Shown here: one piece after another, positions 1,079 through 14,790 of the stretch
Position numbering within the stretch: position 1 is the first letter of the stretch
Layout: each line of letters begins with the position of its first letter
IMG/VR virus record: IMGVR_UViG_3300019371_000256
Location: 8,224-72,223 of that record
DNA from: a virus
Taxonomy: Duplodnaviria; Caudoviricetes
Direction: 5' to 3' (one strand)
Length of the DNA stretch: 64,000 bases
Made by a program: the position numbers and the translations under genes
Notes under the pieces: model-generated
The model's input: the letters and a program-made list of their open reading frames with translations, nothing else
The model's database searches: none
Told to the model about the DNA's origin: nothing

Positions 1079-2227
1079 TTGGGGATAGGAAGAAGTTGGA
1101 CTGCGGAGGAAGAATCCTACTTGGAAGATAAGTGGGGAACTATATCCATAAAGGGCATCGCAAAGAGTTTGAACCGGTCAGAGAATGCCGTTATTGTGAG
1201 AAGCCAGAGAATGGGATTGGGATCATTTTTATCATCAGGAGATTATATTACATGGAACCAACTGCAGATTGCTCTTGGAATGGGACTATCTGGAAGTGGA
1301 TACAAAATGATTTCCTGGGTACAGAACAGAGATTTCCCCTTACACACAAAGCGGATCAGGAACAATTCCTTCAAGGTTGTCTTTTTGGATGAGTTTTGGA
1401 TCTGGGCTGAGAAAAATAAGGCGTTCTTAGATTTTTCCCGGTTTGAACCCTATGCTCTCGGAGAAGAGCCTGCTTGGGTACAAGAAAAACGCCGGCAAGA
1501 TTATTCAGATCGGCTTCAAATCAAAAACGCTCCATGGACATCACATGAAGACGAAAAGCTGATCCGGCTTGTTAGAAAGCAGCGGTATGGATTTCGGGAA
1601 CTATCCCAGATGATGAAGAGAACCGAAGGAGCAATACAACGCCGTCTTACAGATTTGGGAATTAAGGACCGTCCGGTAAAAGCTGACAATCATACCAACT
1701 GGACTAATGAAGAGTTTTCTTTACTGGGGCAGATGATTATTGCAGGGAAAAAGTATGAACAGATGGCTGAAGTTATTGGCAAGTCGGTAAAAGCTATTCG
1801 TGGGAGGGTTTATCAGATGTATATTACCGAAAATTTGGACAAGATACGGGAAATGATCGGATCTGGCCCATGGGGATCTGGCAGACCGGAACGAAAGATT
1901 AAACAATATCTTCTCATGAACCTGGAAGAGAAAGCACAGACCAAGGAACTTATGACCAGACTGGCAGCTATCATTCGGAATCAGTATAAGCAAAACTTTG
2001 ATGATTGCGATTATTGGCAGAAAGACCTATGTCAGCACTGGGAGGGCTTCTGCATGGCGAGTGAAACGGATTGTGACAGCTGCGTGAATTTCCAACGGAT
2101 TAGGCTCCAGTATTGTAAACGCTGCGGAAAAGAGTTTTTGGAGCGGAAGGAAAATCTGTATTGTAAAGACTGTAGGGCTGCCAGAAAGAAACAGTATCTC
2201 AAGAAATTGGCAGTACTTGATAGATAA
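1079..2227 (+). CDS. Phage protein with repeated Myb/SANT-like W-T/S-x-E-E HTH units and a C-terminal Cys cluster
   Basis: GGAGGTG RBS then TTG at 1079; motifs WTAEEE, WTSHEDEKL, WTNEEF; C-terminal CKRC..CKDC. Confidence 0.6.
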   Translation: MGIGRSWTAEEESYLEDKWGTISIKGIAKSLNRSENAVIVRSQRMGLGSFLSSGDYITWNQLQIALGMGLSGSGYKMISWVQNRDFPLHTKRIRNNSFKVVFLDEFWIWAEKNKAFLDFSRFEPYALGEEPAWVQEKRRQDYSDRLQIKNAPWTSHEDEKLIRLVRKQRYGFRELSQMMKRTEGAIQRRLTDLGIKDRPVKADNHTNWTNEEFSLLGQMIIAGKKYEQMAEVIGKSVKAIRGRVYQMYITENLDKIREMIGSGPWGSGRPERKIKQYLLMNLEEKAQTKELMTRLAAIIRNQYKQNFDDCDYWQKDLCQHWEGFCMASETDCDSCVNFQRIRLQYCKRCGKEFLERKENLYCKDCRAARKKQYLKKLAVLDR

Positions 2228-2405
2228 AATCCCCTGAATAAGGGAGGTGCCGGTAAGATCGGGGGAATCCTACCGGCGGAAGTATGAAAAAAAGTATTTA
2301 TATTAAAAGGTTGTTTGCCTCTTTACAAGTATTAATATACCGGAGAATTGTGACGGGAGTTTGATGGTTCTGTGAAGATTTTGTGAGAGAAAGTTGTACA
2401 TTGAA

Positions 2406-2427
2406 AACTTTATATTGATAGTTAGTA
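2406..2427. repeat. L1: 22-bp inverted repeat of the cassette-1 terminator arm (2934-2955)
   Basis: AACTTTATATTGATAGTTAGTA is the exact reverse complement of TACTAACTATCAATATAAAGTT. Confidence 0.9.
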
Positions 2428-2443
2428 AGTATGGTGGTATTCT
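2415..2443 (+). promoter_or_regulatory. Putative sigma-A promoter of accessory cassette 1
   Basis: TTGATA-17 bp-TATTCT with extended TG; the -35 lies inside L1. Confidence 0.55.
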
Positions 2444-2581
2444 ACTATTGAAGGTTATTCATCTAAAGTGGGGGTTATGCAGTTAAACACCAGACATGCC
2501 TTGTATATTTGATACGTCTCGAAACTAATAACAGTCTAAACAAAGTTTAGGAACAAAGGTTGTATAGAATGGAGGGTATTT

Positions 2582-2821
2582 ATGTCAGATTGGGCAGGAG
2601 CCAATTCTTATAAAGATAAGAATATTTTAGAAACTTGTGATTATTGTGGTTGTGTATTTCGAATGGAAAACCAATTGCAGGATGGTCACAACGAATATGA
2701 AGAATACTATTGTCCGGAGTGCCGAAAAGAGTATAGAATTAGGGCAAGTCTTTCCCCAAGAGTGACTTTGGTTACTAAAAGAATAGACGGAAAATCAGAC
2801 CATTATAACAACAATAGATAA
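2582..2821 (+). CDS. Small zinc-ribbon protein (accessory gene)
   Basis: GGAGG RBS; CDYC and CPEC pairs. Confidence 0.75.
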   Translation: MSDWAGANSYKDKNILETCDYCGCVFRMENQLQDGHNEYEEYYCPECRKEYRIRASLSPRVTLVTKRIDGKSDHYNNNR

Positions 2822-2930
2822 GCTCATTTCAAACCTTGAAATACTATTCCACACGTTTAGTTAAAAATTTGTAATTTTTATACTTGTATTTCTAGCATAA
2901 TCCGAAACAAAAAAATAATTTTGAAAAGAA

Positions 2931-2967
2931 AACTACTAACTATCAATATAAAGTTGGTAGTTTTTTT
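2931..2967 (+). terminator. Intrinsic terminator R1
   Basis: AACTACTAAC-loop-GTTGGTAGTT followed by a T-run. Confidence 0.75.
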
Positions 2968-3037
2968 ATTGTCAAAAAGAGAGAAGTTAAAATGGCTATT
3001 TGAATTAGGATTTAAAAGAAAAATTGTTCCTTGATAA

Positions 3038-3066
3038 TTGAATATTGCTAGTTGGGGTGGTAAAAT
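3038..3066 (+). promoter_or_regulatory. Sigma-A promoter of the FRG cassette, overlapping inverted repeat L2 (3040-3055)
   Basis: TTGAAT-17 bp-TAAAAT with extended TG; GAATATTGCTAGTTGG is complementary (15/16) to 3836-3851. Confidence 0.7.
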
Positions 3067-3096
3067 AGATTATTAAATAGACAAAGAGGTGACTAT

Positions 3097-3828
3097 ATGA
3101 AGGAATATTTTATAAATTCATGGAATGAGTTTATGAGTGCTGTTTTAGAAATTTCCTTTGAGAATAAGGGATTTTGTTGGTATAGAGGACATAGAGAGAC
3201 AGGTTGGAAATTATTACCTTCTGTAAAAAGAGATCCTTTTAATCAAGGAGAAAATGAACAATATTTAGCTAATAATTTTTATATTGATGCAAGTCGTAGA
3301 ATAAGAGATAAGCCTAATAATAAAGCTGGATGGATTTCTCTCATGCAACACTATGGATTACCAACTAGGCTTTTAGATTGGTCAGAATCACCATTAATAG
3401 CACTATTTTTTGCTCTAGAAAATCAGGAAGGTTATTCTGAAAAAGATGCGATTGTATGGTCTTTAAATCCTGAAAAGTTAAATATCAACATGGATAACGA
3501 TAAATACCTATATCCAATGGATAGTTATACAGTTCAAAAATATATTGAGCCTGCTTTTTCAAAATGTACTGAACCCGATAATGTTATAGCTTGCTTCCCG
3601 GTAGAAAATGATTTGAGAATGTATGTTCAACAATCAGCATTTACAATTCATTCATCGAATTTACCACTTGAGGAATTTAAGTGTTCAGTTGATTTTTTAA
3701 ATAAAATTGTAATTTCGTCAAAAATAAAAAAAGAATTTAAATTACAACTTGAGATATGCGGATTCAAATTAAGTAACATATATCCAGATGTGGAGCATAT
3801 CTCAAAAGAATTAAAAAATAATTTTTAA
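3097..3828 (+). CDS. FRG domain protein
   Basis: WYRGH, LMQHYGLPTRLLDWSESPLIALFFA and R..QQS.FT motifs; low GC. Confidence 0.9.
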   Translation: MKEYFINSWNEFMSAVLEISFENKGFCWYRGHRETGWKLLPSVKRDPFNQGENEQYLANNFYIDASRRIRDKPNNKAGWISLMQHYGLPTRLLDWSESPLIALFFALENQEGYSEKDAIVWSLNPEKLNINMDNDKYLYPMDSYTVQKYIEPAFSKCTEPDNVIACFPVENDLRMYVQQSAFTIHSSNLPLEEFKCSVDFLNKIVISSKIKKEFKLQLEICGFKLSNIYPDVEHISKELKNNF

Positions 3829-3833
3829 ATACT

Positions 3834-3866
3834 AACCAACTATCAATATTCGGTAGTTGGTTTTTT
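3834..3866 (+). terminator. Intrinsic terminator R2
   Basis: AACCAACTA-loop-TAGTTGGTT followed by a T-run. Confidence 0.75.
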
Positions 3867-3888
3867 ATTACCCAAAAGGAGGAATATA

Positions 3889-4104
3889 TTGAGAAAATCA
3901 TCAAAAGACTGCAGAGCAGATAGAGCTAGCGTGAACAGTCGTATACAGGCCGAGGCGGATGAAGCTATAAAGGCGCCGCCGGTAATGAGCTTCAGCGCAA
4001 CAAATCCACCCTACGCATATACAAGCTCATGCCCGGATCCAAAGCGCAGGACTGGCCCAGCTTTTGCGGAATTACGGAGGAAGAAGGTGCAGCATGAGGC
4101 TTGA
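3889..4104 (+). CDS. Hypothetical phage protein
   Basis: AGGAGG RBS, TTG start, overlaps the next gene. Confidence 0.6.
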   Translation: MRKSSKDCRADRASVNSRIQAEADEAIKAPPVMSFSATNPPYAYTSSCPDPKRRTGPAFAELRRKKVQHEA

Positions 4105-4288
4105 AGAAAAACAGATAGTCACTGTCCAGATTTATCCAGGTAGGAAGTTTGGGACCATGATCGGCAGCAATGACGGTCTGATCGGGATACAGCTTAACAA
4201 TGGTGATTACATAGACGTACCCCAGGAGAGGGTGAGGATTGTGTCGGTAGAGGTGGAAAATGAAAAAGACGAAAATAGAATACAGTAA
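4094..4288 (+). CDS. Hypothetical phage protein
   Basis: ATG at 4094 overlapping the upstream ORF end; translationally coupled run. Confidence 0.6.
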   Translation: MRLEEKQIVTVQIYPGRKFGTMIGSNDGLIGIQLNNGDYIDVPQERVRIVSVEVENEKDENRIQ

Positions 4289-4448
4289 CAAGAAATGTCA
4301 ATGTTGTGGAAAGTTATATCCTCCCAAGACAGATCAGAAAAGATGTACTTGTAAGCAAGCTGGGTGGTTACTTGATTGGGGAACATGGCATGAGCCGAAA
4401 ATATTAGGCGTGAATCCAACAAATATACAACCGCCTGAAAAAAGTTGA
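4260..4448 (+). CDS. Small Cys-rich phage protein
   Basis: CQCC..CTC; GAGGTGG RBS. Confidence 0.6.
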   Translation: MKKTKIEYSNKKCQCCGKLYPPKTDQKRCTCKQAGWLLDWGTWHEPKILGVNPTNIQPPEKS

Positions 4449-4465
4449 TGGAGGAAATTTATTAT

Positions 4466-5452
4466 ATGAATCGGTCAAAAGTTGAATGGTGTGATCATGA
4501 ATGGAACCCAATAACCGGATGCTCTGACAAGTGCATCAAATGTACTTATACCAAGTTCATACGTGGCTTTGGTGGTGCTGATAGCAGATTTAATCTTTCA
4601 AAAACTCATATGTATAAGCAGGAAGGTGAGCTTTGCGTTTTAGAATCTGAATTCACCTCAGAAACAGGGTATAAAAGCGATTATCCATTTGGTATGTTGC
4701 CAACGTACCATCGATATAGATTAGGGCGTTTGGGTACCCTTAGTACCGGAAAGAATGTGCTTTGCGGTTCCATTGGTGAAATGTTTGGATATGAATCTTG
4801 GTGCTATAAAGAGATATTCGATGCTTGTAGATTGTATTCTCAAAACAACTATCTCTTCCTTTCATCAGAAATTGGATATAGTAAGCTGCTGCATACTTTG
4901 CCTGCGGAAGATAATATGTGGTACGGAAGTGTGATTTATAAAAAAGAAGACCCGGTATTTGCAAAAGAGGGATACCATTGCTTTCTTTACATTAACCCGA
5001 AAGAAGAGCTGGCTATGAATTTATTAGAATTAGATGTTCGGGTGGAATGGGTGGTTGTAGGTACCGGTGGCTGCAGGTATGGAAATAAAAAACAGATGCC
5101 TGAAAAGGAATGGATTGACAATATTATTAAATATACAGAAAGATTGAGCATCCCAATATTTATAGAATCTGCTATATGTCTGAAGTATCAGCTTCCACCT
5201 AGAAGAGAGTACCCGGATCAGTTGATGTGGAGTTCTGGCCGTCGGTATTTTGGGGAACTCAAGGAGAAAATGGTCGGTGTATGTGGAAAATGCAAACGAG
5301 AAGAATTAAAGCAGAATATGGTAGCTATATGTGGTCGAGTTCAGAGAGGGAAACAGCCACAACAAATGGGATATCTTTGTAAGGAATGCTTGGAGAAGGT
5401 ATGTGAGAAATACGATTTCAAAAATATTATAGGAGGTACCGCTAATGAGTAA
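4466..5452 (+). CDS. DUF5131 (Gp37/Gp68-like) radical-SAM-type phage protein with a C-terminal Zn finger
   Basis: KVEWCDHEWNPITGC, CxxxCxxC, WVVVG; C-terminal CGKC/CKEC. Confidence 0.8.
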   Translation: MNRSKVEWCDHEWNPITGCSDKCIKCTYTKFIRGFGGADSRFNLSKTHMYKQEGELCVLESEFTSETGYKSDYPFGMLPTYHRYRLGRLGTLSTGKNVLCGSIGEMFGYESWCYKEIFDACRLYSQNNYLFLSSEIGYSKLLHTLPAEDNMWYGSVIYKKEDPVFAKEGYHCFLYINPKEELAMNLLELDVRVEWVVVGTGGCRYGNKKQMPEKEWIDNIIKYTERLSIPIFIESAICLKYQLPPRREYPDQLMWSSGRRYFGELKEKMVGVCGKCKREELKQNMVAICGRVQRGKQPQQMGYLCKECLEKVCEKYDFKNIIGGTANE

Positions 5453-7038: not shown

Positions 7039-7269
7039 AAATGGTTGCTAATGCTATCTTATGTCCATTGAGTTAAATTTGATAGATCGTATGTTTATAC
7101 AAGTAAATCCGTTATGGAATTAGGTTTAGCAATAGGGAAAAATGACGAATGTTATCGTTTTCGGTCATAAACTAAGGGTAAAATTTTTTGTTAACACCGT
7201 TTATCCGATATAGCATGTAAGAATGTACATTTACATTCAACAAAATATAGTTATTGATCTAAACATACA

Positions 7270-7299
7270 TTGACATTGCAAGATTAGTAATGTTAAAAT
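7270..7299 (+). promoter_or_regulatory. Sigma-A promoter of the PARIS-like operon
   Basis: TTGACA-18 bp-TAAAAT with extended TG. Confidence 0.65.
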
Positions 7300-7326
7300 G
7301 TAGAAAAATATAGGGGGGATGAAGAA

Positions 7327-8733
7327 ATGATTAAGTATTTTACGGTATATGGTCTATTTGGAAAGTTTAAAAATGAAATAGTTTTTAATGAAAAAGAAAA
7401 AATCACTTTATTAATTGGACCAAATGGATGTGGAAAAACTACTACATTAAAAATACTAAAATGTGTTTTTATGGATACTCTAAAAGAATTATGGAGATTT
7501 GACTTTGAGAAAATTGAAATAGGGATTGAAAATTCAATCATCAGGATTGAGACAGATAAGGAGTATCCCTATTTACAAAAAAAAATGAATAGAAACAACA
7601 AGACCTTCTCGATTCATGGCGTATTTAAAATTTTTTTGAATGATAAACCTATGGAATATGTATATTCTAGAAATACAGATAAGTATTTAGAAAGAAATTA
7701 TATAAAAAATCATTACTATGAAGATGAGATTAGTGAAATTACGAAATTTAATCCATATATTGAAAGGAGTATAATAAAGGAAGAATATAATGATACTTCT
7801 GCAGCAATTGAGTTGAATTTTCCTGAAGAAATAAAAGTACTATTAGAAAAAGTTAAAATCGATTTTGTTTCAACTAATAGATTACTAAAGATGGATATAG
7901 ACGAAAATATTCCTTTACGTGAATTGAGAAATCGTTTTCGCTATGAAAATATGGTTGAAGTATATTCAAATGAATTAGTTAAAATGATTAAAGATACATT
8001 ATCTGAATATGCTAATATATCACAAAAATTAGATGAAGCTTTTCCGGGAAAAATATTTGAAGCTTTAAAAAATAATATATATTATGATGAAGATAAAGAA
8101 TTAGTAGAAAAAAAAATTGAGGAAATTAATACTCTAAGAGAAAAACATATTAAAACGGGTATACTTGAGAGCAATGAAACTACAAAATACATTACAGATA
8201 GTATTGATACTGTTGATTCTAAAACATTGCCTATATTAAAGGTTTATTATAAAGATACAGAAGAAAAATTAAAATCTCTCAATGATTTGTCTGACCGTAT
8301 TTTATTGTTTATTGATTTGGTAAATAGAAAATTAATGTATGGTAAGCAGCTTATTATAACAAAAGAAAAAGGAATTCAAATAACAGATGAAAAAGGAATA
8401 CAAATAACAGAAGAAAAAGGAATACAAATAACAAAAGAAAAAGGAATTCAAATAACAGATAGAAAGAAGATAATAGAACTTTCCCAATTATCCTCTGGAG
8501 AGCAACAAGAGATAGTTTTACTGTATCGGCTTATATTTTCGTCAAATGAAAATCAGTTAATCTTAATTGACGAACCTGAAATTTCATTGCATGTAGCATG
8601 GCAGAGACAATTTGTTGATGACTTAAAGAAGATTATTGAATTAAATAAAATGAATATATTAATTGCTACACACTCACCTCAGATATTAAATGATTATTGG
8701 AATCTAACAGTAAAATTGGGTGAGGTAGAATAG
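7327..8733 (+). CDS. ariA: ABC/AAA_21-type ATPase, PARIS AriA-like
   Basis: Walker A GPNGCGKTT, signature LSSGEQQ, Walker B LILIDEPE, H-loop ATHSP; directly upstream of a DUF4435 gene. Confidence 0.8.
   Translation: MIKYFTVYGLFGKFKNEIVFNEKEKITLLIGPNGCGKTTTLKILKCVFMDTLKELWRFDFEKIEIGIENSIIRIETDKEYPYLQKKMNRNNKTFSIHGVFKIFLNDKPMEYVYSRNTDKYLERNYIKNHYYEDEISEITKFNPYIERSIIKEEYNDTSAAIELNFPEEIKVLLEKVKIDFVSTNRLLKMDIDENIPLRELRNRFRYENMVEVYSNELVKMIKDTLSEYANISQKLDEAFPGKIFEALKNNIYYDEDKELVEKKIEEINTLREKHIKTGILESNETTKYITDSIDTVDSKTLPILKVYYKDTEEKLKSLNDLSDRILLFIDLVNRKLMYGKQLIITKEKGIQITDEKGIQITEEKGIQITKEKGIQITDRKKIIELSQLSSGEQQEIVLLYRLIFSSNENQLILIDEPEISLHVAWQRQFVDDLKKIIELNKMNILIATHSPQILNDYWNLTVKLGEVE
8356..8460 (+). 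repeat. In-frame 24-bp tandem repeat (about 4.4 copies, IT[KDE]EKGIQ) in the ATPase
   Basis: ATAACA(A/G)A(A/T)GAAAAAGGAAT(T/A)CAA units at 8356, 8380, 8404, 8428 and a partial unit at 8452. Confidence 0.95.
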
Positions 8734-8734
8734 C

Positions 8735-9613
8735 ATGTTTGAACAAGAGATGAAACAGAGTCCTGTAGAATTAGCAGATGAAATCGGAATGATGTTATGT
8801 GGATTAGAAGATAAATTTATTCTTGTAGAAGGAGATTCTGATAAACGATTTTGGAATACATTACAAATTAGTAATAAAAAAAAGTATCGAATATACCTTG
8901 GTGCTAAAATAGATTCTAATAGTAACAAAGATTACGTAATTAATGTGCTAAAGTTATTATATGAAAGAAATATAGAAGCTAACATTATCGGAATTGTAGA
9001 TGCGGATTATGATTTTTTAGATGATATAAATGTCTCACTTAAAAGCTTATATTATTATAAATATAAAGACTTAGAGTTGACTCTGTTAAAGAGTCCTTCT
9101 TTGGATATAGTAAATGAATTGGTCTCATCAAATAAAAAAAGGAAGCCAACTTATGAATTATTAGAATTAATTCTTACAAAAACATATCCTCTAGGAATTC
9201 TAAGACTTGTTAATGAGAAGTATAATTATAACTTTGATTTTAAAGATATTAAATTTAAAAAGCTGTATGAAAAAACAGAGGAAGATTTTTTGAAATATTT
9301 TTGTGATTATACTAAACTACCTTTTGATGAGAGAAGTATCTTAATTGAAAGATATAAATATATTAAAAATAAAAATTACAGAAAGGAATATATTTGTAAC
9401 GGCCATGATGCATTAGAAATATTTAGTTTATTATTGAAACAAGAGATAGCTAATGAAAGTCATTGTGAGCATAATGGAGGTATACTATGTGAAATGTTAA
9501 TGTCATCATACCATCATATCCAATCATTAGAAAGTCATATCGATATAGAGTCATTCGATAATATAGTTATTTCATCAATAAAAACTAAAGAATTGAATAT
9601 ATTAATGACTTAA
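8735..9613 (+). CDS. ariB: DUF4435 TOPRIM-like nuclease, PARIS AriB-like
   Basis: ILVEGDSD, GIVDADYD and CNGHD motifs; operonic with the ABC ATPase. Confidence 0.8.
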   Translation: MFEQEMKQSPVELADEIGMMLCGLEDKFILVEGDSDKRFWNTLQISNKKKYRIYLGAKIDSNSNKDYVINVLKLLYERNIEANIIGIVDADYDFLDDINVSLKSLYYYKYKDLELTLLKSPSLDIVNELVSSNKKRKPTYELLELILTKTYPLGILRLVNEKYNYNFDFKDIKFKKLYEKTEEDFLKYFCDYTKLPFDERSILIERYKYIKNKNYRKEYICNGHDALEIFSLLLKQEIANESHCEHNGGILCEMLMSSYHHIQSLESHIDIESFDNIVISSIKTKELNILMT

Positions 9614-10143
9614 TAAAAAGATTATTTATAAAACATGATTAATATAGTTAATAGTGCTGAGTGCAAAATTAATTGATTACCAAATAAAGATTGTAAACTT
9701 ACAATGATTTTAAGCAAATCTAACCCTTTAGATAAATCGATTATTCTGGAATTAGGATGTACTGTAAAATATTTAAAACAAGAGTTGCTATATTATAAAT
9801 AATTTCATTTTAATTGAGAAAGTACTGTCCCGACGCTCGCATCCGTCAAAGACAGTATTAACCCCTTCCCAAAGGTTCGTTGTCGGGGTGGGGATAACAG
9901 CAGAGAAAGTCCAGGGTATCCGCCCTGGATTTTCTTGTCTTATTGTATCTCAATATTCCTCCCTGGTTGCCCGGTGCTGCTCTGACCAAGAATTTGATTG
10001 AGCTGCACTCTTTAACTTGTATTATTTTCCATTTATAATATAATAGATACAGAATTATTCATTTATTAATATGGTGGCATAGCTTAATATAATTGTAATA
10101 ATGGGAAGTTAGAGCATCAAGAGATGCGCTGGGGGATAAATGT

Positions 10144-13107
10144 ATGTACGAACAAGAATTTCAAAGAATTGTAGACGCCTCAAGAAACCATTCCTTAACA
10201 TTTTTTGTTGGCGCAGGTGTTTCGGCTCTATCCGGAGCTCCCTCCTGGAAAAAGTTAATCCAAGAAATTTGCTATAGGCTAAAACGTCCTATAAAAGAGG
10301 CGTATTCGTCAGATGAAAATTTGCAAATTCCTCAGATGTACTACTACTCTATTGAGAAAGATGATGATACGTATTATAGCTTTATCGAAGAGCTACTTAC
10401 CACTAATAACCTCCTACCAAATGAAGTTCACAAAGAATTGTTGAACTTCAATCCAAGCTCTTTTATAACAACAAACTTTGATAGCCTTATTGAGGAAGCT
10501 GCTATCCAATATTGTCAAAGCTTTAAGGTAGTTGCATGTGACGATGAAGTCTCAAGCATTAACGGCGACAGATATATATTGAAACTTCATGGTGACTTAA
10601 AGCATAAAAACATTGTATTTAAGGAAGAAGACTACCTAAATTATAGTGAGAATTTCAAATTAACTGAGACTCTGCTCAAGTCCATTTTTTCAACAAATAC
10701 AGTTGTTTTTATTGGATATGGTTTAAATGATTACAACATAAAGTTGATTCTCAATTGGGCAAAAACGCTATTAAAAGACCATTTTAATAAGCCTATCTTC
10801 ATTTATACTGGTGAAACTCCATTAAGTACCGAAGAACTCTTATATCAAAAATCAAAAGGATTATGCGTGATTGAATGTGAAAAAATAGTTAAGCACTCCA
10901 CTGATTATTTTACAAGATATATGTCTGTTCTAATGGCAATAAAAAAATCATCGGATTTATCTATCGATGGAAAAACAGAACAAGAGGCCTTTGGCATCCT
11001 ATATGAACTATTAGAACCTCTTGATAGATTGAATACTTTAAGAATCAGAGATGTTTATTCTAAATTAAAGCCTTATATAAGAATAAATGATGACGGAACA
11101 ATTTTGACTTCCCCTAGCGAAAGTATTCTGATTCAATACTTTTTTAAAATAAATATGATCTCCGTCGAAGAATATGAATCAATCCCTAAAGCTATACAAG
11201 AAAAGTATCAAGTTATTTTAAGAGTGTTTAGTAAAGCACAAATTGATAAAGTTGATATAGAACATAAGAGACACTTCTTTGCCAACAAGGAAGTTTACTT
11301 TGCTGATCCAAATTGTATAGGTTTTAATTATGAAAATATGTTTGCTTTTGCGTCAAAAAAGTATACTACAATTCGTGATAATTACAAAAAGGGATTCTAT
11401 CTTGCACGCTTAAAACAATATGACAAAGCATTCTATATGTTTGCTCAAATTGCTAATCAAGCATTTAAATCTAAGGATTACCTATTTTATTATCTTGCAG
11501 AAGTCAACTGTATCAATCTTCGTATAATTCTACGAAATGTAAATCAGTATTACAACTGTTATGACATCGAAAAAATTGATGCGACAGCTCCAAATACTGA
11601 TGACATCGAGCATTTGTTTGAAAAACTGCCAATTGAGTTTCAGAACCAATACATCAGCTTCAAAGATATACATTCAACAAATCTATTATACCAATATTCT
11701 TATGAGGCTTTTGCTGATGGTCAAAAGCTTCGGAATGCAATAGAGTCAAATTCAATAGAGTATGGTTTTACAAGCAGTGCAAAAGCAATGTGTAGAATTA
11801 ATGACTATTTACATTTCTTACTGGGTAATGGTATTGTTGTTGATCTTTTTGCTGAATTTAAAAATACTATTAATAACTTGATGTCTCTGCTTGTCTATAA
11901 GTATTCTGTGCAAGGTAAAAAAAATCTGCAAGATGAATTTTTCCTCGGCTCTACGCAAGAGGAGGTATATTTTGATGAAATAGATTTTTATTGTTTTGTT
12001 GAATGCTTTAGTAGCAATGAATTAATTCAGTTATTTAGTAAGCATAAAGTGAAAACAATCACATTTCAAAAAATTGATTTGGTTGAAAATGCAATAAATA
12101 ATATGCTGAAATATTATGAACAGCTAATAAAAAAGAACGCAAGTTTTACAGAAATTATAAATTTACAAAGGCAAATAAAGTCATGTTTAGCTTTGCTGCG
12201 ATATGTAGATATATCGCAGTCATTAGTTGAAACATTATGTCGGTTTCTTTTTAAATATGAATTCCGTGAAATACTGATCAATGATAAAATTTCATTTCTT
12301 TATTATCAATTATTATGCAAAGAAATGTATAGTGATGTAACCTCGAAAATAATTGAGGACAAGTTGCTTTTTTATATAGATTCTCAAATAAGGGCAATTG
12401 AGTCTTCAGAAAAATTTAATGAACCCTTGTCTAATAGTGGCCTTACCTATAGCAATTTGATCCACTACGTTGCTCCTAAAAATGAGCAATATCATTCACG
12501 TAGGGTAGCCATCCGAGTTTTGTATATTATTAAAAACAATATGACTGACATGGTTCCACATGTCTTAAAGGATTATTGGAACCATATCTCACCATATTCT
12601 CGATACAAAGTTACTACTTGGGTAAAGGAGAAATTAACATATTCTTTTAACTTTGATATGTTCACATTGCTAATTGAATGCAACGTAAAAATTGATAAAA
12701 AATTAATTGAATCCCTTATAGGATACTTACGGGATATAATTCAGAAAGAATCTATAGAATCAAAAAAAACAGAGATTTTTACACACTCCGAAAGAGATCT
12801 CTATAGGGAATTGAAACTGGTTGGATATTGGTGTTTGATAAAAAAACTTCGTAAAGATGATTTTAAAGCCTTTGTAGGTGTTAACGATTTTTTTGACTTC
12901 TTTTACCAATACGAAAAATTTGATTTTACTAAATTTGATGTATCGTGGCTTCTAAATCTTAATTTGCAAGCACTGAAAGCAATTGCAAATAACAAACTTG
13001 TTAAAGAAAAAATCAGATTTTCTATTGTGCATGTTTTGGATGAGGGAAATGTTTTAGATACAGATAAAATGAAATTATTAGACATATTAACACATCATTT
13101 TTGCTAA
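10144..13107 (+). CDS. dsr2: Defence-associated sirtuin (SIR2 NADase), DSR2-like, full length
   Basis: FFVGAGVS, ITTNFD, LKLHGD, VVFIGYGLNDYNI; about 990 aa; C-terminal FDFTKFDVSWL resembles the Bacillus DSR2 C-terminus as recalled. Confidence 0.85.
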   Translation: MYEQEFQRIVDASRNHSLTFFVGAGVSALSGAPSWKKLIQEICYRLKRPIKEAYSSDENLQIPQMYYYSIEKDDDTYYSFIEELLTTNNLLPNEVHKELLNFNPSSFITTNFDSLIEEAAIQYCQSFKVVACDDEVSSINGDRYILKLHGDLKHKNIVFKEEDYLNYSENFKLTETLLKSIFSTNTVVFIGYGLNDYNIKLILNWAKTLLKDHFNKPIFIYTGETPLSTEELLYQKSKGLCVIECEKIVKHSTDYFTRYMSVLMAIKKSSDLSIDGKTEQEAFGILYELLEPLDRLNTLRIRDVYSKLKPYIRINDDGTILTSPSESILIQYFFKINMISVEEYESIPKAIQEKYQVILRVFSKAQIDKVDIEHKRHFFANKEVYFADPNCIGFNYENMFAFASKKYTTIRDNYKKGFYLARLKQYDKAFYMFAQIANQAFKSKDYLFYYLAEVNCINLRIILRNVNQYYNCYDIEKIDATAPNTDDIEHLFEKLPIEFQNQYISFKDIHSTNLLYQYSYEAFADGQKLRNAIESNSIEYGFTSSAKAMCRINDYLHFLLGNGIVVDLFAEFKNTINNLMSLLVYKYSVQGKKNLQDEFFLGSTQEEVYFDEIDFYCFVECFSSNELIQLFSKHKVKTITFQKIDLVENAINNMLKYYEQLIKKNASFTEIINLQRQIKSCLALLRYVDISQSLVETLCRFLFKYEFREILINDKISFLYYQLLCKEMYSDVTSKIIEDKLLFYIDSQIRAIESSEKFNEPLSNSGLTYSNLIHYVAPKNEQYHSRRVAIRVLYIIKNNMTDMVPHVLKDYWNHISPYSRYKVTTWVKEKLTYSFNFDMFTLLIECNVKIDKKLIESLIGYLRDIIQKESIESKKTEIFTHSERDLYRELKLVGYWCLIKKLRKDDFKAFVGVNDFFDFFYQYEKFDFTKFDVSWLLNLNLQALKAIANNKLVKEKIRFSIVHVLDEGNVLDTDKMKLLDILTHHFC

Positions 13108-13208
13108 AGCCAATTATGATAACCGTTTTATGTATATAATAAATAGATTAAGTTAAGTATTGAGATTATTGAAAGTCATTACTTGCAGCATATACAGGGG
13201 GTAAATAC

Positions 13209-14180
13209 ATGGAAAAACGGTATCAAATTTTTGTAAGTTCGACATTTGAGGATTTAGTAGATGAGCGTAAGAGGGTCATAGAAACTATTTTAAATTTTAA
13301 TCATATTCCAGCTGGAATGGAGTTGTTTACTGCCTCTAACGATGAACAATTTGAATATATAAAAAAAATAATGCATAATTGTGATTATTATATTCTAATA
13401 GTTGGAGGCAGATATGGAACTATAAATCCAGATAAAGGTATAAGCTACACAGAGCAAGAATATCTTTATGCCTTGGAATTAGGTTTACCAATTTTAGCTT
13501 TTTTACATGAGACACCATATGATTTGCCATCCAAAAGAAGGGATGATGAGAATAGAATACTATTTGATGCATTTCTAAAAAAAGTTAAAACAGGTAAGAT
13601 GATTAAGTATTGGTCTAATATAGATAATTTGACTTCTTCAGTTTTACTAGGATTAAATTATGAATTTAATAATAATCCTAGGTTAGGTTGGGTGCGTGGC
13701 GGAGAAAGTAATAGTGCTGAACTTTTAAAACAAATTAATGATTTGAGGTTAGAAAAAGAGACGATAGAGAAGAAGTATATGGAAGTTAAAGAGACTCTTC
13801 ATGAAAACCAACCTAAATTTGAAAATTTAGCTGAAATGTCAGAGGTGTATACTGTCAGAGGAATAGAAATGGATGAAAATGGTGATAGCAATTTTTATGA
13901 GGATGATTTTGATTTTACTTGGAATGACATTTTTAAAGCAATTGGTCCGCACCTTAATCCTTGTGTAAAAAAAGACATATTTGAAAAAATCGTAAAGTGT
14001 AATCTTGGTTATTATGGTTTCGAAGGAATCAGAGATGAGTGTATACAAACTATTAGGATACAGTTATATGCGCAAGGTCTTATATATCAAGATACAATAT
14101 CAGGTAGCTTGCATATAGGTCTGACTCAAAAGGGAGAAGTATATCTATTGCAGATTATGACTATAAAGACGCAAAAGTAA
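13209..14180 (+). CDS. DUF4062 (TIR/NDT-like) domain protein
   Basis: RYQIFVSSTFEDLVDER, CDYYILIVGGRYG, SYTEQEY. Confidence 0.85.
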   Translation: MEKRYQIFVSSTFEDLVDERKRVIETILNFNHIPAGMELFTASNDEQFEYIKKIMHNCDYYILIVGGRYGTINPDKGISYTEQEYLYALELGLPILAFLHETPYDLPSKRRDDENRILFDAFLKKVKTGKMIKYWSNIDNLTSSVLLGLNYEFNNNPRLGWVRGGESNSAELLKQINDLRLEKETIEKKYMEVKETLHENQPKFENLAEMSEVYTVRGIEMDENGDSNFYEDDFDFTWNDIFKAIGPHLNPCVKKDIFEKIVKCNLGYYGFEGIRDECIQTIRIQLYAQGLIYQDTISGSLHIGLTQKGEVYLLQIMTIKTQK

Positions 14181-14192
14181 GAAAGGTTAGCT

Positions 14193-14654
14193 ATGGAATA
14201 TAATTATAATGATATATTGATACATGCAAATAAATTTTACAATATTTATTTAGAGATAGCAAAGAATAATGAAGATAAGGATGAGTATTCTTCCTATGCT
14301 GTCGAATTCGTAAATGGTACATTTACTTGTGAATTATATTTAAAAGCGTTATGTTTAAAACTGAATAAAAAGCATGCGCATGGTCATGACCTCAAGGACC
14401 TATTTATGTGTTTACCTGATGATTATAAGACTTTAATTGGGCAAAAAATGCATAAGGAAGACTATGCTTATCCTATATATCCGAATAAAGACTGTGTATT
14501 AGATACACTCTGGTACGAGTTTAGTAAAGGATTTATTGAATATCGATATGAATATGAAAAAGTGGGTAATGGTAAAAGGTTGATTATTTTTCCAAATCTG
14601 TTATCTGAATTTGCAACTATTTTAAAAGAGGTTACTGAAAGTATCTATTTATAA
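14193..14654 (+). CDS. Stand-alone HEPN-like protein
   Basis: FTCELYLKAL, GHDLKDLF, FIEYRY pattern. Confidence 0.6.
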   Translation: MEYNYNDILIHANKFYNIYLEIAKNNEDKDEYSSYAVEFVNGTFTCELYLKALCLKLNKKHAHGHDLKDLFMCLPDDYKTLIGQKMHKEDYAYPIYPNKDCVLDTLWYEFSKGFIEYRYEYEKVGNGKRLIIFPNLLSEFATILKEVTESIYL

Positions 14655-14790
14655 GTATAATTACAAAATAATTACATTGACACTACATATAACAGATGTT
14701 AGACTGTAAATGTAAAATTCTATCATATGTAAGGGGATTGCCGAAATGAAGACGGTAGTCCCTTTTTTGCTCCCCAGGAAGGAGCATAAG

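Follow-up and report, generated by a model that had tools for sequence, protein, structure and literature searches.

A family of single-gene moron cassettes with complementary promoter and terminator modules in temperate phages of Lachnospiraceae

Two small accessory-gene cassettes lie back to back, between positions 2406 and 3866, in a 64,000-nucleotide (nt) stretch of viral DNA (positions 8,224 to 72,223 of IMG/VR record IMGVR_UViG_3300019371_000256). We refer to the whole stretch as “the window”. Each cassette consists of an upstream module with a promoter (“L”), a single gene (“cargo”), and a downstream module with a terminator (“R”), and a sequence in L is repeated in inverted orientation in R; the promoters and terminators described here are sequence predictions. 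Here, we show that the two cassettes are members of a large family of standardized single-gene morons found in temperate phages of Lacrimispora and other Lachnospiraceae. L, cargo and R are gained and lost together within phage operons that are tightly packed, at several sites and in arrays. The family is real and widespread, and is apparently an undescribed variant of the theme represented by morons and by the promoter-early stem-loops (PeSLs) of T4-type phages. Its complementary ends suggest a regulatory switch, in which pairing of L with R in RNA might determine whether transcription stops at R.

The cassette family

The initial annotation of the window described a promoter that is the inverted repeat of the cassette's own terminator, and a repeat search agrees with the complementarity it reported. 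The L arm of cassette 1 (2406–2427) is a perfect reverse complement of the R arm (2934–2955; 22/22 nt), while the L arm of cassette 2 (3040–3055) is complementary to its R arm (3836–3851) at 15/16 positions, with a C in L giving a C·U mismatch. Dinucleotide-preserving shuffling of 1500–5000 (200 replicates) gave longest perfect inverted repeats of 9–16 nt (median 11), as compared with the 22 nt observed. The non-cognate pair, L of cassette 1 with R of cassette 2, matches at 19/21 positions, meaning that each L matches its own R best. Region 2228–3890 holds two cassettes of low guanine-plus-cytosine (GC) content (24–35%) in a prophage backbone of ~40–50% GC. The 12-nt core of the repeat, AACTATCAATAT, has five exact occurrences in the 4.5-Mb source genome: three belong to the window cassettes, one is the L of a second prophage (contig C15; the corresponding R differs by one base), and one is a chance copy inside a gene. 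Elsewhere in the source genome, the motif is found at chance level only.

The initial annotation also proposed looking in related genomes for further L/R pairs and for diversity of cargo. We gathered such pairs by pattern scans of genome and viral contigs for L-type sites upstream of R-type sites, filtered by context; the first scans, with 15-mers, gave mostly chance matches in unrelated phyla, and these were removed by context. The scans yielded 75 unique L/R pairs from prophages of Lacrimispora/Lachnospiraceae and from viral contigs, including the pair in the C15 prophage. Named hosts are mostly Lacrimispora species, together with related Lachnospiraceae. Because L and R modules are present in isolate genomes, they are unlikely to be assembly artefacts. 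The C15 prophage has the same non-coding region upstream of L as window cassette 1 (described below), followed by L, a different cargo (a TIGR04076 protein), and R. A blastn search with 2200–4000 against 50,697 phage records gave no match, and comparison of the cassettes with Rfam gave nothing at the gathering score or at E ≤ 1.

Among the first 57 cassettes, the interval between L and R is a single open reading frame (ORF) of 66–454 amino acids (aa) that always reads from L to R (57/57), and the cargos fall into 45 unrelated clusters. Most cargos have no Pfam match; the domains that were found include DUF2971, Mrr_cat, His_Phos_1, DUF4062, FRG, HEPN, MazG, and GIY-YIG, among others. Candidate matches in PADLOC are PDC-S31 (three cargos) and PDC-S15 (one). 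No transposase or recombinase was found among 51 cargo proteins.

Anatomy of the L and R modules

A cassette is made up of an L promoter module (~60 nt), one cargo gene with its own ribosome-binding site (RBS), and an R terminator module (~50 nt). A nearly invariant 16-nt motif, CCAACTATCAATATTC, is present in both modules in opposite orientations, with conservation near 2 bits per position in the family alignment of each. One subclass, to which window cassette 1 belongs, has a longer L/R match of 20–22 nt. The layout of the type-2 L is AATTAGGATTTAAAAGA-nnn-ATTGTTCCTTGATAATTGA/ATATTGATAGTT/GG-n-ATGGTATAAT, and that of R is CC/AACTATCAATAT/TCGGTAGTTGG-T6-ATTGCCCAAAAGGAGG, the 3′ end of which is the RBS of the next phage gene. 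There are two classes of L and three of R, combined as L2-R2 (36 cassettes), L2-R3 (15), L1-R1 (14), L1-R2 (4), L1-R3 (2), and L2-R1 (1).

The structures into which the motif is built differ between classes. In R2, the motif forms the 5′ arm of the stem. R1 and R3 share the stem ACTAC(C/T)AAC/GTTGGTAGT, with the greater part of the motif placed in an unusually large loop of 10–12 nt. The hairpin has three registers across the R classes, in every one of which the motif covers its 5′ side. Likewise, L has two promoter registers, with the −35 element being either TTGATA inside the motif or TTGAAT at the motif edge, and it is positioned upstream of the −10 element in all cassettes. L is a perfect Watson–Crick complement of the 5′ side of R, whereas the 3′ arm of R itself pairs with G·U. 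The constancy of the motif while the surrounding structures differ argues that it has a role of its own. The initial annotation had placed the L arms over sigma-A-type promoters and had described R as the 5′ arm and loop of intrinsic terminators; consensus matches at both window L arms, and the location of both window Rs inside predicted hairpin/T-run terminators, are in line with this.

In tandem arrays, each junction comprises a complete R, a conserved spacer of ~60–75 nt, and L, with R and the next L being 75–90 nt apart. An antisense promoter inside R is not a conserved feature, since a −10-like hexamer occurs at the right spacing in 26% of cassettes as compared with a background of 14%.

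Several smaller features of the modules were observed. The type-2 L (3030–3055 in the window) has TTGA at 7-nt phasing (TTGAYAA TTGAATA TTGATAG TTGG), and the type-2 module holds the 11-mer TTGATARTTGR twice in direct orientation, at a distance of 14 nt; R has one inverted and one direct copy. The terminator at 3611–3650 of locus L362 (locus identifiers are our own) has a flipped loop, CCAACTATC-GAATATT-GATAGTTGG, such that R carries L-type sequence on the sense strand; the L of this locus has a 6-nt insertion, and complementarity between L and R is down to ~9 nt. Locus L391 (minus strand, ~896) has a longer perfect palindrome of the same sequence, the orientation of which is not readable.

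Gain and loss of cassettes

Alleles with and without a cassette were found by scanning for the conserved gene downstream of the type-2 R. The site next to this gene has ~20 filled alleles, each with a different cargo, and ~20 empty ones, the latter being a class of allele that the initial annotation had suggested should be sought. Empty alleles (L419, L425, L446, and L413) read ...AAACGAAGATTTTCA-T-AAGGAGG..., and in L213 an L-cargo-R block is inserted at this position. The block begins ~24 nt to the left of the L motif and ends ~27 nt to the right of the R motif. Comparison of L213 with the empty alleles revealed no target-site duplication, only 2–3 nt of microhomology that is not constant between sites, and a second comparison, of L432 with L304 and L396, places the left boundary elsewhere. 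Cassettes have at least seven backbone contexts, of which two lie immediately downstream of tRNA genes; in the viral contigs of L303 and L383, the cassette starts right after the 3′ end of the tRNA gene, 70 nt upstream of L (GGTTCGATTCCC and GGTTCGAATCC, respectively). Contigs from other metagenomes carry the L and R modules at high depth and leave the window sequence exactly at 2425–2427 and 2928–2931, which indicates that other cargos sit between the same modules there.

The initial annotation had raised the possibility that L and R are the ends of a cassette-mobilization system similar to miniature inverted-repeat transposable elements (MITEs) or integrons. Mobility in a general sense is supported by the at least 45 cargo families, the at least seven contexts, the arrays and the empty alleles; the proposed type of mechanism is not. 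Transposition by terminal inverted repeats was rejected because the inserted DNA extends past the repeats, lacks a target-site duplication of fixed length, and has variable boundaries. Site-specific insertion, whether Campbell-type or integron-like, was rejected because neither hybrid solo sites (the left part of L joined to the right part of R) nor palindromic circle junctions were found in 408 loci; a scan of viral contigs for TGAATATTCGGTAGTTGG gave only four unrelated chance matches. An integron cassette was rejected because every cassette brings a promoter module of its own and array junctions consist of R, spacer and L, and the attC consensus because ACCAAC/GTTGGT is one base short of RYYYAAC/GTTRRRY.

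Taken strictly, this idea is that a dedicated enzyme (a recombinase, transposase or nuclease) recognizes the motif copies as DNA ends and either moves the cassettes or stimulates exchange between them. This would account for an invariant, inverted sequence at both ends of a unit that is gained and lost as a whole, with many cargo types and several insertion contexts, and in its arm-AATATT-arm layout R2 looks similar to a tyrosine recombinase core site, although this is a resemblance only. We nevertheless consider it unlikely: conserved DNA and the insertion boundaries extend ~24 and ~27 nt outside the repeats, arrays retain R, spacer and L in full instead of one hybrid site, and the results on duplications, boundaries, solo sites (in the 408 loci and in viral contigs), cargo proteins and genomic copies of the motif all count against it. 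The data fit recombinational gain, loss and exchange through the conserved modules, in the manner of PeSLs, rather than transposition or integron recombination.

Inverted repeats flanking a promoter-bearing segment also bring to mind an inverton, in which the gene and its −10 element would be flipped between the repeats to give phase-variable expression; after such an inversion, TTGATA would face a weak antisense −10. This reading was rejected as extremely improbable, given that all 57 examined cassettes have their ORF in the single L-to-R orientation and that no strand-changing joints were seen in four metagenome runs. A limited check of the window detected no invertase gene nearby.

One locus may preserve a trace of cassette loss or of an original site. 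In L032 (1653–1700), from same-genus genome G395, there is no cassette at the position of cassette 1; the sequence there, TTGAAAATTAAGTATTGGTACTTGGTATTTTATTGTCC, looks like a fusion between the left part of L and the right part of R, and forms a small hairpin followed by a T-run. This junction could be a deletion scar or a proto-site. A deletion could have run through AATATTGA, an 8-nt direct repeat that is common to L and the type-1 R because AATATT is palindromic.

A possible role for L:R pairing in RNA

The positions of the cassettes within operons raise the question of how transcription proceeds through R. Only ~25 nt separate the flanking phage genes in empty alleles. Where a cassette is present, the T-run of R is ~10 nt before the RBS of the next phage gene and a promoter would not fit in between, so that transcription of the phage genes has to pass through R. 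We tentatively favor a reading, already put forward in the initial annotation and plausible in view of the anatomy, in which the inverted motif acts in RNA, with pairing between L and R switching termination at R. Transcripts from the cassette promoter would start downstream of L and would be free of it, such that the R hairpin would form and transcription would stop; in a lysogen, this stop would shield downstream lytic genes from transcription of the moron. Transcripts from the upstream phage operon would contain L, which could pair with the 5′ arm and loop of R. A 16–22 bp L:R duplex would then compete with a 9-bp hairpin that includes a G·U pair. Pairing could prevent or undo the terminator, or make a substrate for RNase III, and with the terminator lost from read-through RNA, an inserted cassette would be non-polar in lytic growth. 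The conserved modules might double as portable homology for exchange between phages, as PeSLs do in T4-type phages, with recombinational exchange keeping the motif uniform across cassettes. The full form of this proposal is that the cassette is a protein-free, portable insulator that senses promoter origin through a long-range duplex (0.3–1.5 kb), stopping its own transcripts and letting those of the phage operon pass. We regard this full form as rather doubtful.

RNA folding is consistent with a switch. Median free energies are −27 kcal/mol for the L:R duplex, −10.7 kcal/mol for the hairpin, and −7.6 kcal/mol for controls, and the duplex of window cassette 1 has a value of −29.2 kcal/mol. In minimum-free-energy folds of read-through RNA, L is paired with R and the terminator is lost in 54 of 64 cassettes; with L shuffled, the terminator is kept in all 64. 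An upstream sequence that excludes the hairpin, as in an antiterminator, is thus predicted in 54/64 cassettes and in 0/64 controls. For window cassette 1, the terminator is absent from the fold of read-through RNA and present in that of the transcript made from the cassette promoter.

Sequence variation gives a mixed picture. The initial annotation described L and R as “co-varying per cassette”, which holds for the three cassettes of the source genome; across the family, the covariation is mostly at the level of class (two or three chassis types), and the core varies uncompensated. In a comparison of 74 cassettes, the match is better for cognate than for non-cognate L and R at just two positions, −1 and +13, and these separate the chassis classes. 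Position −1 (T/C) of type-1 cassettes, tallied by eye, gave 10 TT, 2 CC and 3 mixed pairs, with no clear association. G·U-compatibility of mismatches gave no signal, since two recurrent R variants, CAGTAT (compatible) and CAACAT (not compatible), cancel out. Family-wide covariation is therefore weak evidence of selection on pairing. In window cassette 1, the same rare T-to-A change is found in both L and R, at a position where ~73 of 74 cassettes have T; this points to one event favoring an L/R match.

A number of observations and arguments weigh against a pairing switch. First, variation in the motif is often uncompensated. Within the core, cognate and non-cognate match rates are equal. The CAACAT variant of R, which creates an A·C mismatch, is uncompensated in ~7 cassettes, and the G·U-compatible variant CAGTAT has no counterpart change in L. 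The C in the L of window cassette 2 is likewise uncompensated, as is a 1-nt deletion in the L of L404, L302, and L230. In L357, it is the R hairpin that compensates internally, and not L. In L422, L084, L119, L349, and L362, the R loop has lost or flipped the motif while L has kept it. Second, the folds are equilibrium predictions; the terminator is kept in 10 of the 64 read-through folds, one of these being window cassette 2, and pairing over 260–1450 nt would have to outpace a local hairpin kinetically. Third, pairing alone needs no invariant sequence. Fourth, in arrays, the R of the previous cassette, ~90 nt upstream, could compete for L. Fifth, a phage-wide processive antiterminator could solve polarity without any L:R pairing. 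Lastly, the sole RNA evidence is a single 191-nt contig from a faecal metatranscriptome (a run with a word share of 0.07) that has 100% identity to 2629–2819; it lies inside cargo 1, has no transcript ends, and is a weak sign of cargo 1 transcription.

Uncompensated core variants, and the persistence of cassettes with a motif-less R, are also what might be expected if the symmetry had no function of its own. L and R would then simply be the conserved promoter and terminator of a PeSL-like chassis shuffled by recombination, with L derived from half of the near-palindromic terminator and both modules held uniform by frequent homologous exchange. Indeed, the R2 hairpin is a near-perfect palindrome centered on AATATT, which means that half of R2 automatically resembles L; the flipped-loop terminator of L362 and the perfect palindrome of L391 point in the same direction. 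The array junctions and variable boundaries fit homologous exchange, for which PeSLs provide a precedent (PMC2839356, PMC4122927). On the other hand, this explanation leaves unexplained why the motif is retained in three hairpin registers, including a 10- to 12-nt loop, and in two promoter registers, and why L fits the 5′ arm of R better than the 3′ arm of R does. Nor does it predict the rare T-to-A change shared by L and R of window cassette 1. We judge it improbable on balance.

The argument from invariance also leads to a protein-binding alternative, in which the motif is an operator: a regulator bound at L would repress the cassette promoter, and at R it would act as a roadblock or form a repression loop with L. 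In support of this idea, the sequence is invariant and not merely complementary, the motif overlaps the −35 element or the spacer in both promoter architectures, and the type-2 L has TTGAnAn heptads and a second copy of TTGATARTTGR. An operator gives no reason for a second site on the 5′ side of a terminator hairpin. The motif is not palindromic, no further sites were found elsewhere in the prophage (e.g., in the immunity region), and no candidate regulator was identified. We consider an operator decidedly improbable.

If termination were indeed switched by transcript origin, the pairing of L with R would represent a regulatory design that is both new and very simple. This would account for the ability of temperate phages to place accessory genes with terminators inside essential operons and still grow lytically unharmed, and would be a portable, protein-free answer to moron polarity, in use for over 45 gene families. 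Synthetic biology could, in addition, adopt it as a ready-made insulator. Whatever the mechanism, the L and R modules are a sequence tag for single-gene accessory cargo in phages of Lachnospiraceae; the function of most of this cargo is unknown. The tagged cargo is partly defense-like (FRG/PDC-S15, PDC-S31, Mrr, HEPN, and DUF4062), and the tag offers a cheap way to mine gut and environmental Clostridia for candidate anti-phage or host-modifying genes.

Relationship to known systems

The initial annotation knew of no named system with this design, and literature searches likewise returned no paper describing the cassette family, with the PeSL papers being the only analogue. PeSLs of T4-type phages are short, conserved, repeated promoter and terminator sequences that bracket variable genes, mostly of unknown function (Arbiol et al. 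2010, PMC2839356; Comeau et al. 2014, PMC4122927). They sit at indels or replacements between related phages and have been proposed to provide portable homology for modular shuffling; PeSL mini-circles have been demonstrated experimentally (PMC2839356, PMC4122927). The cassettes resemble PeSLs in that conserved, repeated promoter and terminator sequences border variable genes at indels. However, a PeSL is one composite unit, with the stem-loop in or beside the promoter, and occurs in virulent myoviruses of Gram-negative hosts, whereas L and R lie at opposite ends of a gene, share an inverted motif of 16–22 nt, and occur in temperate phages of Lachnospiraceae. Complementarity of a gene's promoter with its own terminator is not described for PeSLs.

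Morons of lambdoid phages (studied by Juhala, Hendrix and co-workers in HK97 and HK022) are reportedly autonomous promoter-gene-terminator units located between genes that are adjacent in relatives. They have deviant base composition and are expected to be expressed from the prophage. The cassettes share these traits: each has its own predicted promoter and terminator around one accessory gene, is inserted between neighbors that are adjacent in empty alleles, and has a GC content (24–35%) below that of the backbone (~40–50%). Classical morons have individual, unrelated promoters and terminators; by contrast, one frame with complementary ends is reused here around dozens of genes.

Two RNA-based systems share parts of the proposed logic. 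In attenuators, an upstream complement pairs with the 5′ arm of a terminator such that the two structures are mutually exclusive, and no more than tens of nucleotides separate these elements in a leader. In lambda sib retroregulation, the fate of an RNA (read-through or terminated) is set by the promoter from which it originates. Both mutually exclusive pairing with the terminator 5′ arm and dependence of RNA fate on transcript origin are predicted for the cassettes. Unlike in attenuators, the pairing partners would be separated by 260–1450 nt that include a translated gene, and the state of the switch would depend on promoter origin rather than on a ligand or ribosome.

Among mobile elements, integron cassettes are promoterless, have one attC per junction, and need the IntI integrase and attI. 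The similarities are single-gene units with diverse cargo, an imperfect palindrome at the 3′ end, and tandem arrays; the differences are a promoter module in each unit, arrays that keep R, spacer and L, and a sequence that departs from the R''/R' consensus. No link to an integrase was seen, although no search aimed at one was made. MPME elements of mycobacteriophages, Correia elements of Neisseria, and MITEs have terminal repeats, target-site duplications, and constant content. Correia elements additionally have promoter and terminator activity, and their transcribed repeats form substrates of RNase III. As in these elements, short inverted repeats bound a small unit at variable sites; here, however, the repeats are subterminal, no duplication was seen, and the content differs in nearly every copy.

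Other features of the window

The cassette design is not general to all morons of the phage, since a larger AT-rich defense island at 7039–14680 (with an AAA_15/AAA_21 ATPase, among others) has no L/R modules and no comparable inverted repeat of promoter and terminator. Further upstream, 995–2227 encodes a 410-aa protein with Myb-like, GcrA-like, and sigma-70 region-4-like helix-turn-helix segments, which is not found at the corresponding position in the C15 prophage. It is followed by a conserved non-coding region (2228–2405, plus strand; ~175 nt) that directly abuts the L arm of cassette 1 and includes a GC hairpin, GCCGGTAAGATCGGGGGAATCCTACCGGC, at 2250–2278 and three TGTGA repeats. This region has no Rfam match. 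It has 91% identity to a region in the C15 prophage (L051), with weaker matches, in prophages, in 19 of 400 other sampled genomes of the family. The same region precedes type-1 cassettes in L304, L338, and L422, and is also present in L032, L033, and L052. It could harbor a phage promoter, a regulator site, or an antitermination element.

Both window cassettes are on the plus strand. The type-1 L module of cassette 1 spans 2406–2443, i.e., the inverted-repeat arm and the promoter, as supported by consensus match and family alignment; the promoter has −35 TTGATA (2415–2420), 17-nt spacing, and extended −10 TGgTATTCT (2435–2443). The 5′ leader (2444–2581, ~135 nt) is unusually long, typical cassette leaders being 20–60 nt. 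Cargo 1 (2582–2821) is an ORF for a 79-aa CxxC...CxxC protein that is zinc-ribbon-like, its zinc-ribbon matches being sub-threshold only. The type-1 R module (2930–2967) is a hairpin of −8.4 kcal/mol with 9–12 bp between a 5′ arm (2930–2941) and a 3′ arm (2952–2963), a 10-nt loop (2942–2951), and a T7 run (2961–2967). It was missed by the terminator scan because of its loop size only.

The type-2 L module of cassette 2 (3003–3066) begins with AATTAGGATTTAAAAGA...ATTGTTCCTTGATAATTGA, which is followed by the inverted-repeat arm. The promoter matches the consensus, with −35 TTGAAT (3038–3043), 17-nt spacing, and extended −10 TGgTAAAAT (3058–3066), and the module, ~60 nt in length, is kept in more than 40 cassettes. 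Cargo 2 (3097–3828) is a 243-aa FRG-domain protein (Pfam PF08867, E = 2e-25; PADLOC PDC-S15, E = 6e-49), which makes it a candidate single-gene anti-phage defense protein. The R2 module (3834–3882), detected by the terminator scan, comprises a near-palindromic terminator (3834–3862), a T-run (3861–3866), and a conserved tail, ATTACCCAAAAGGAGG, that provides the RBS for the next phage gene (TTG start at 3889). This tail and the downstream gene are common to ~20 other cassettes. The downstream gene itself (3889–4104) is a TTG-start ORF of 71 codons with ~50% GC and no match to a Pfam or NCBIfam family, and it is the neighbor of ~20 different cassettes and ~20 empty sites.

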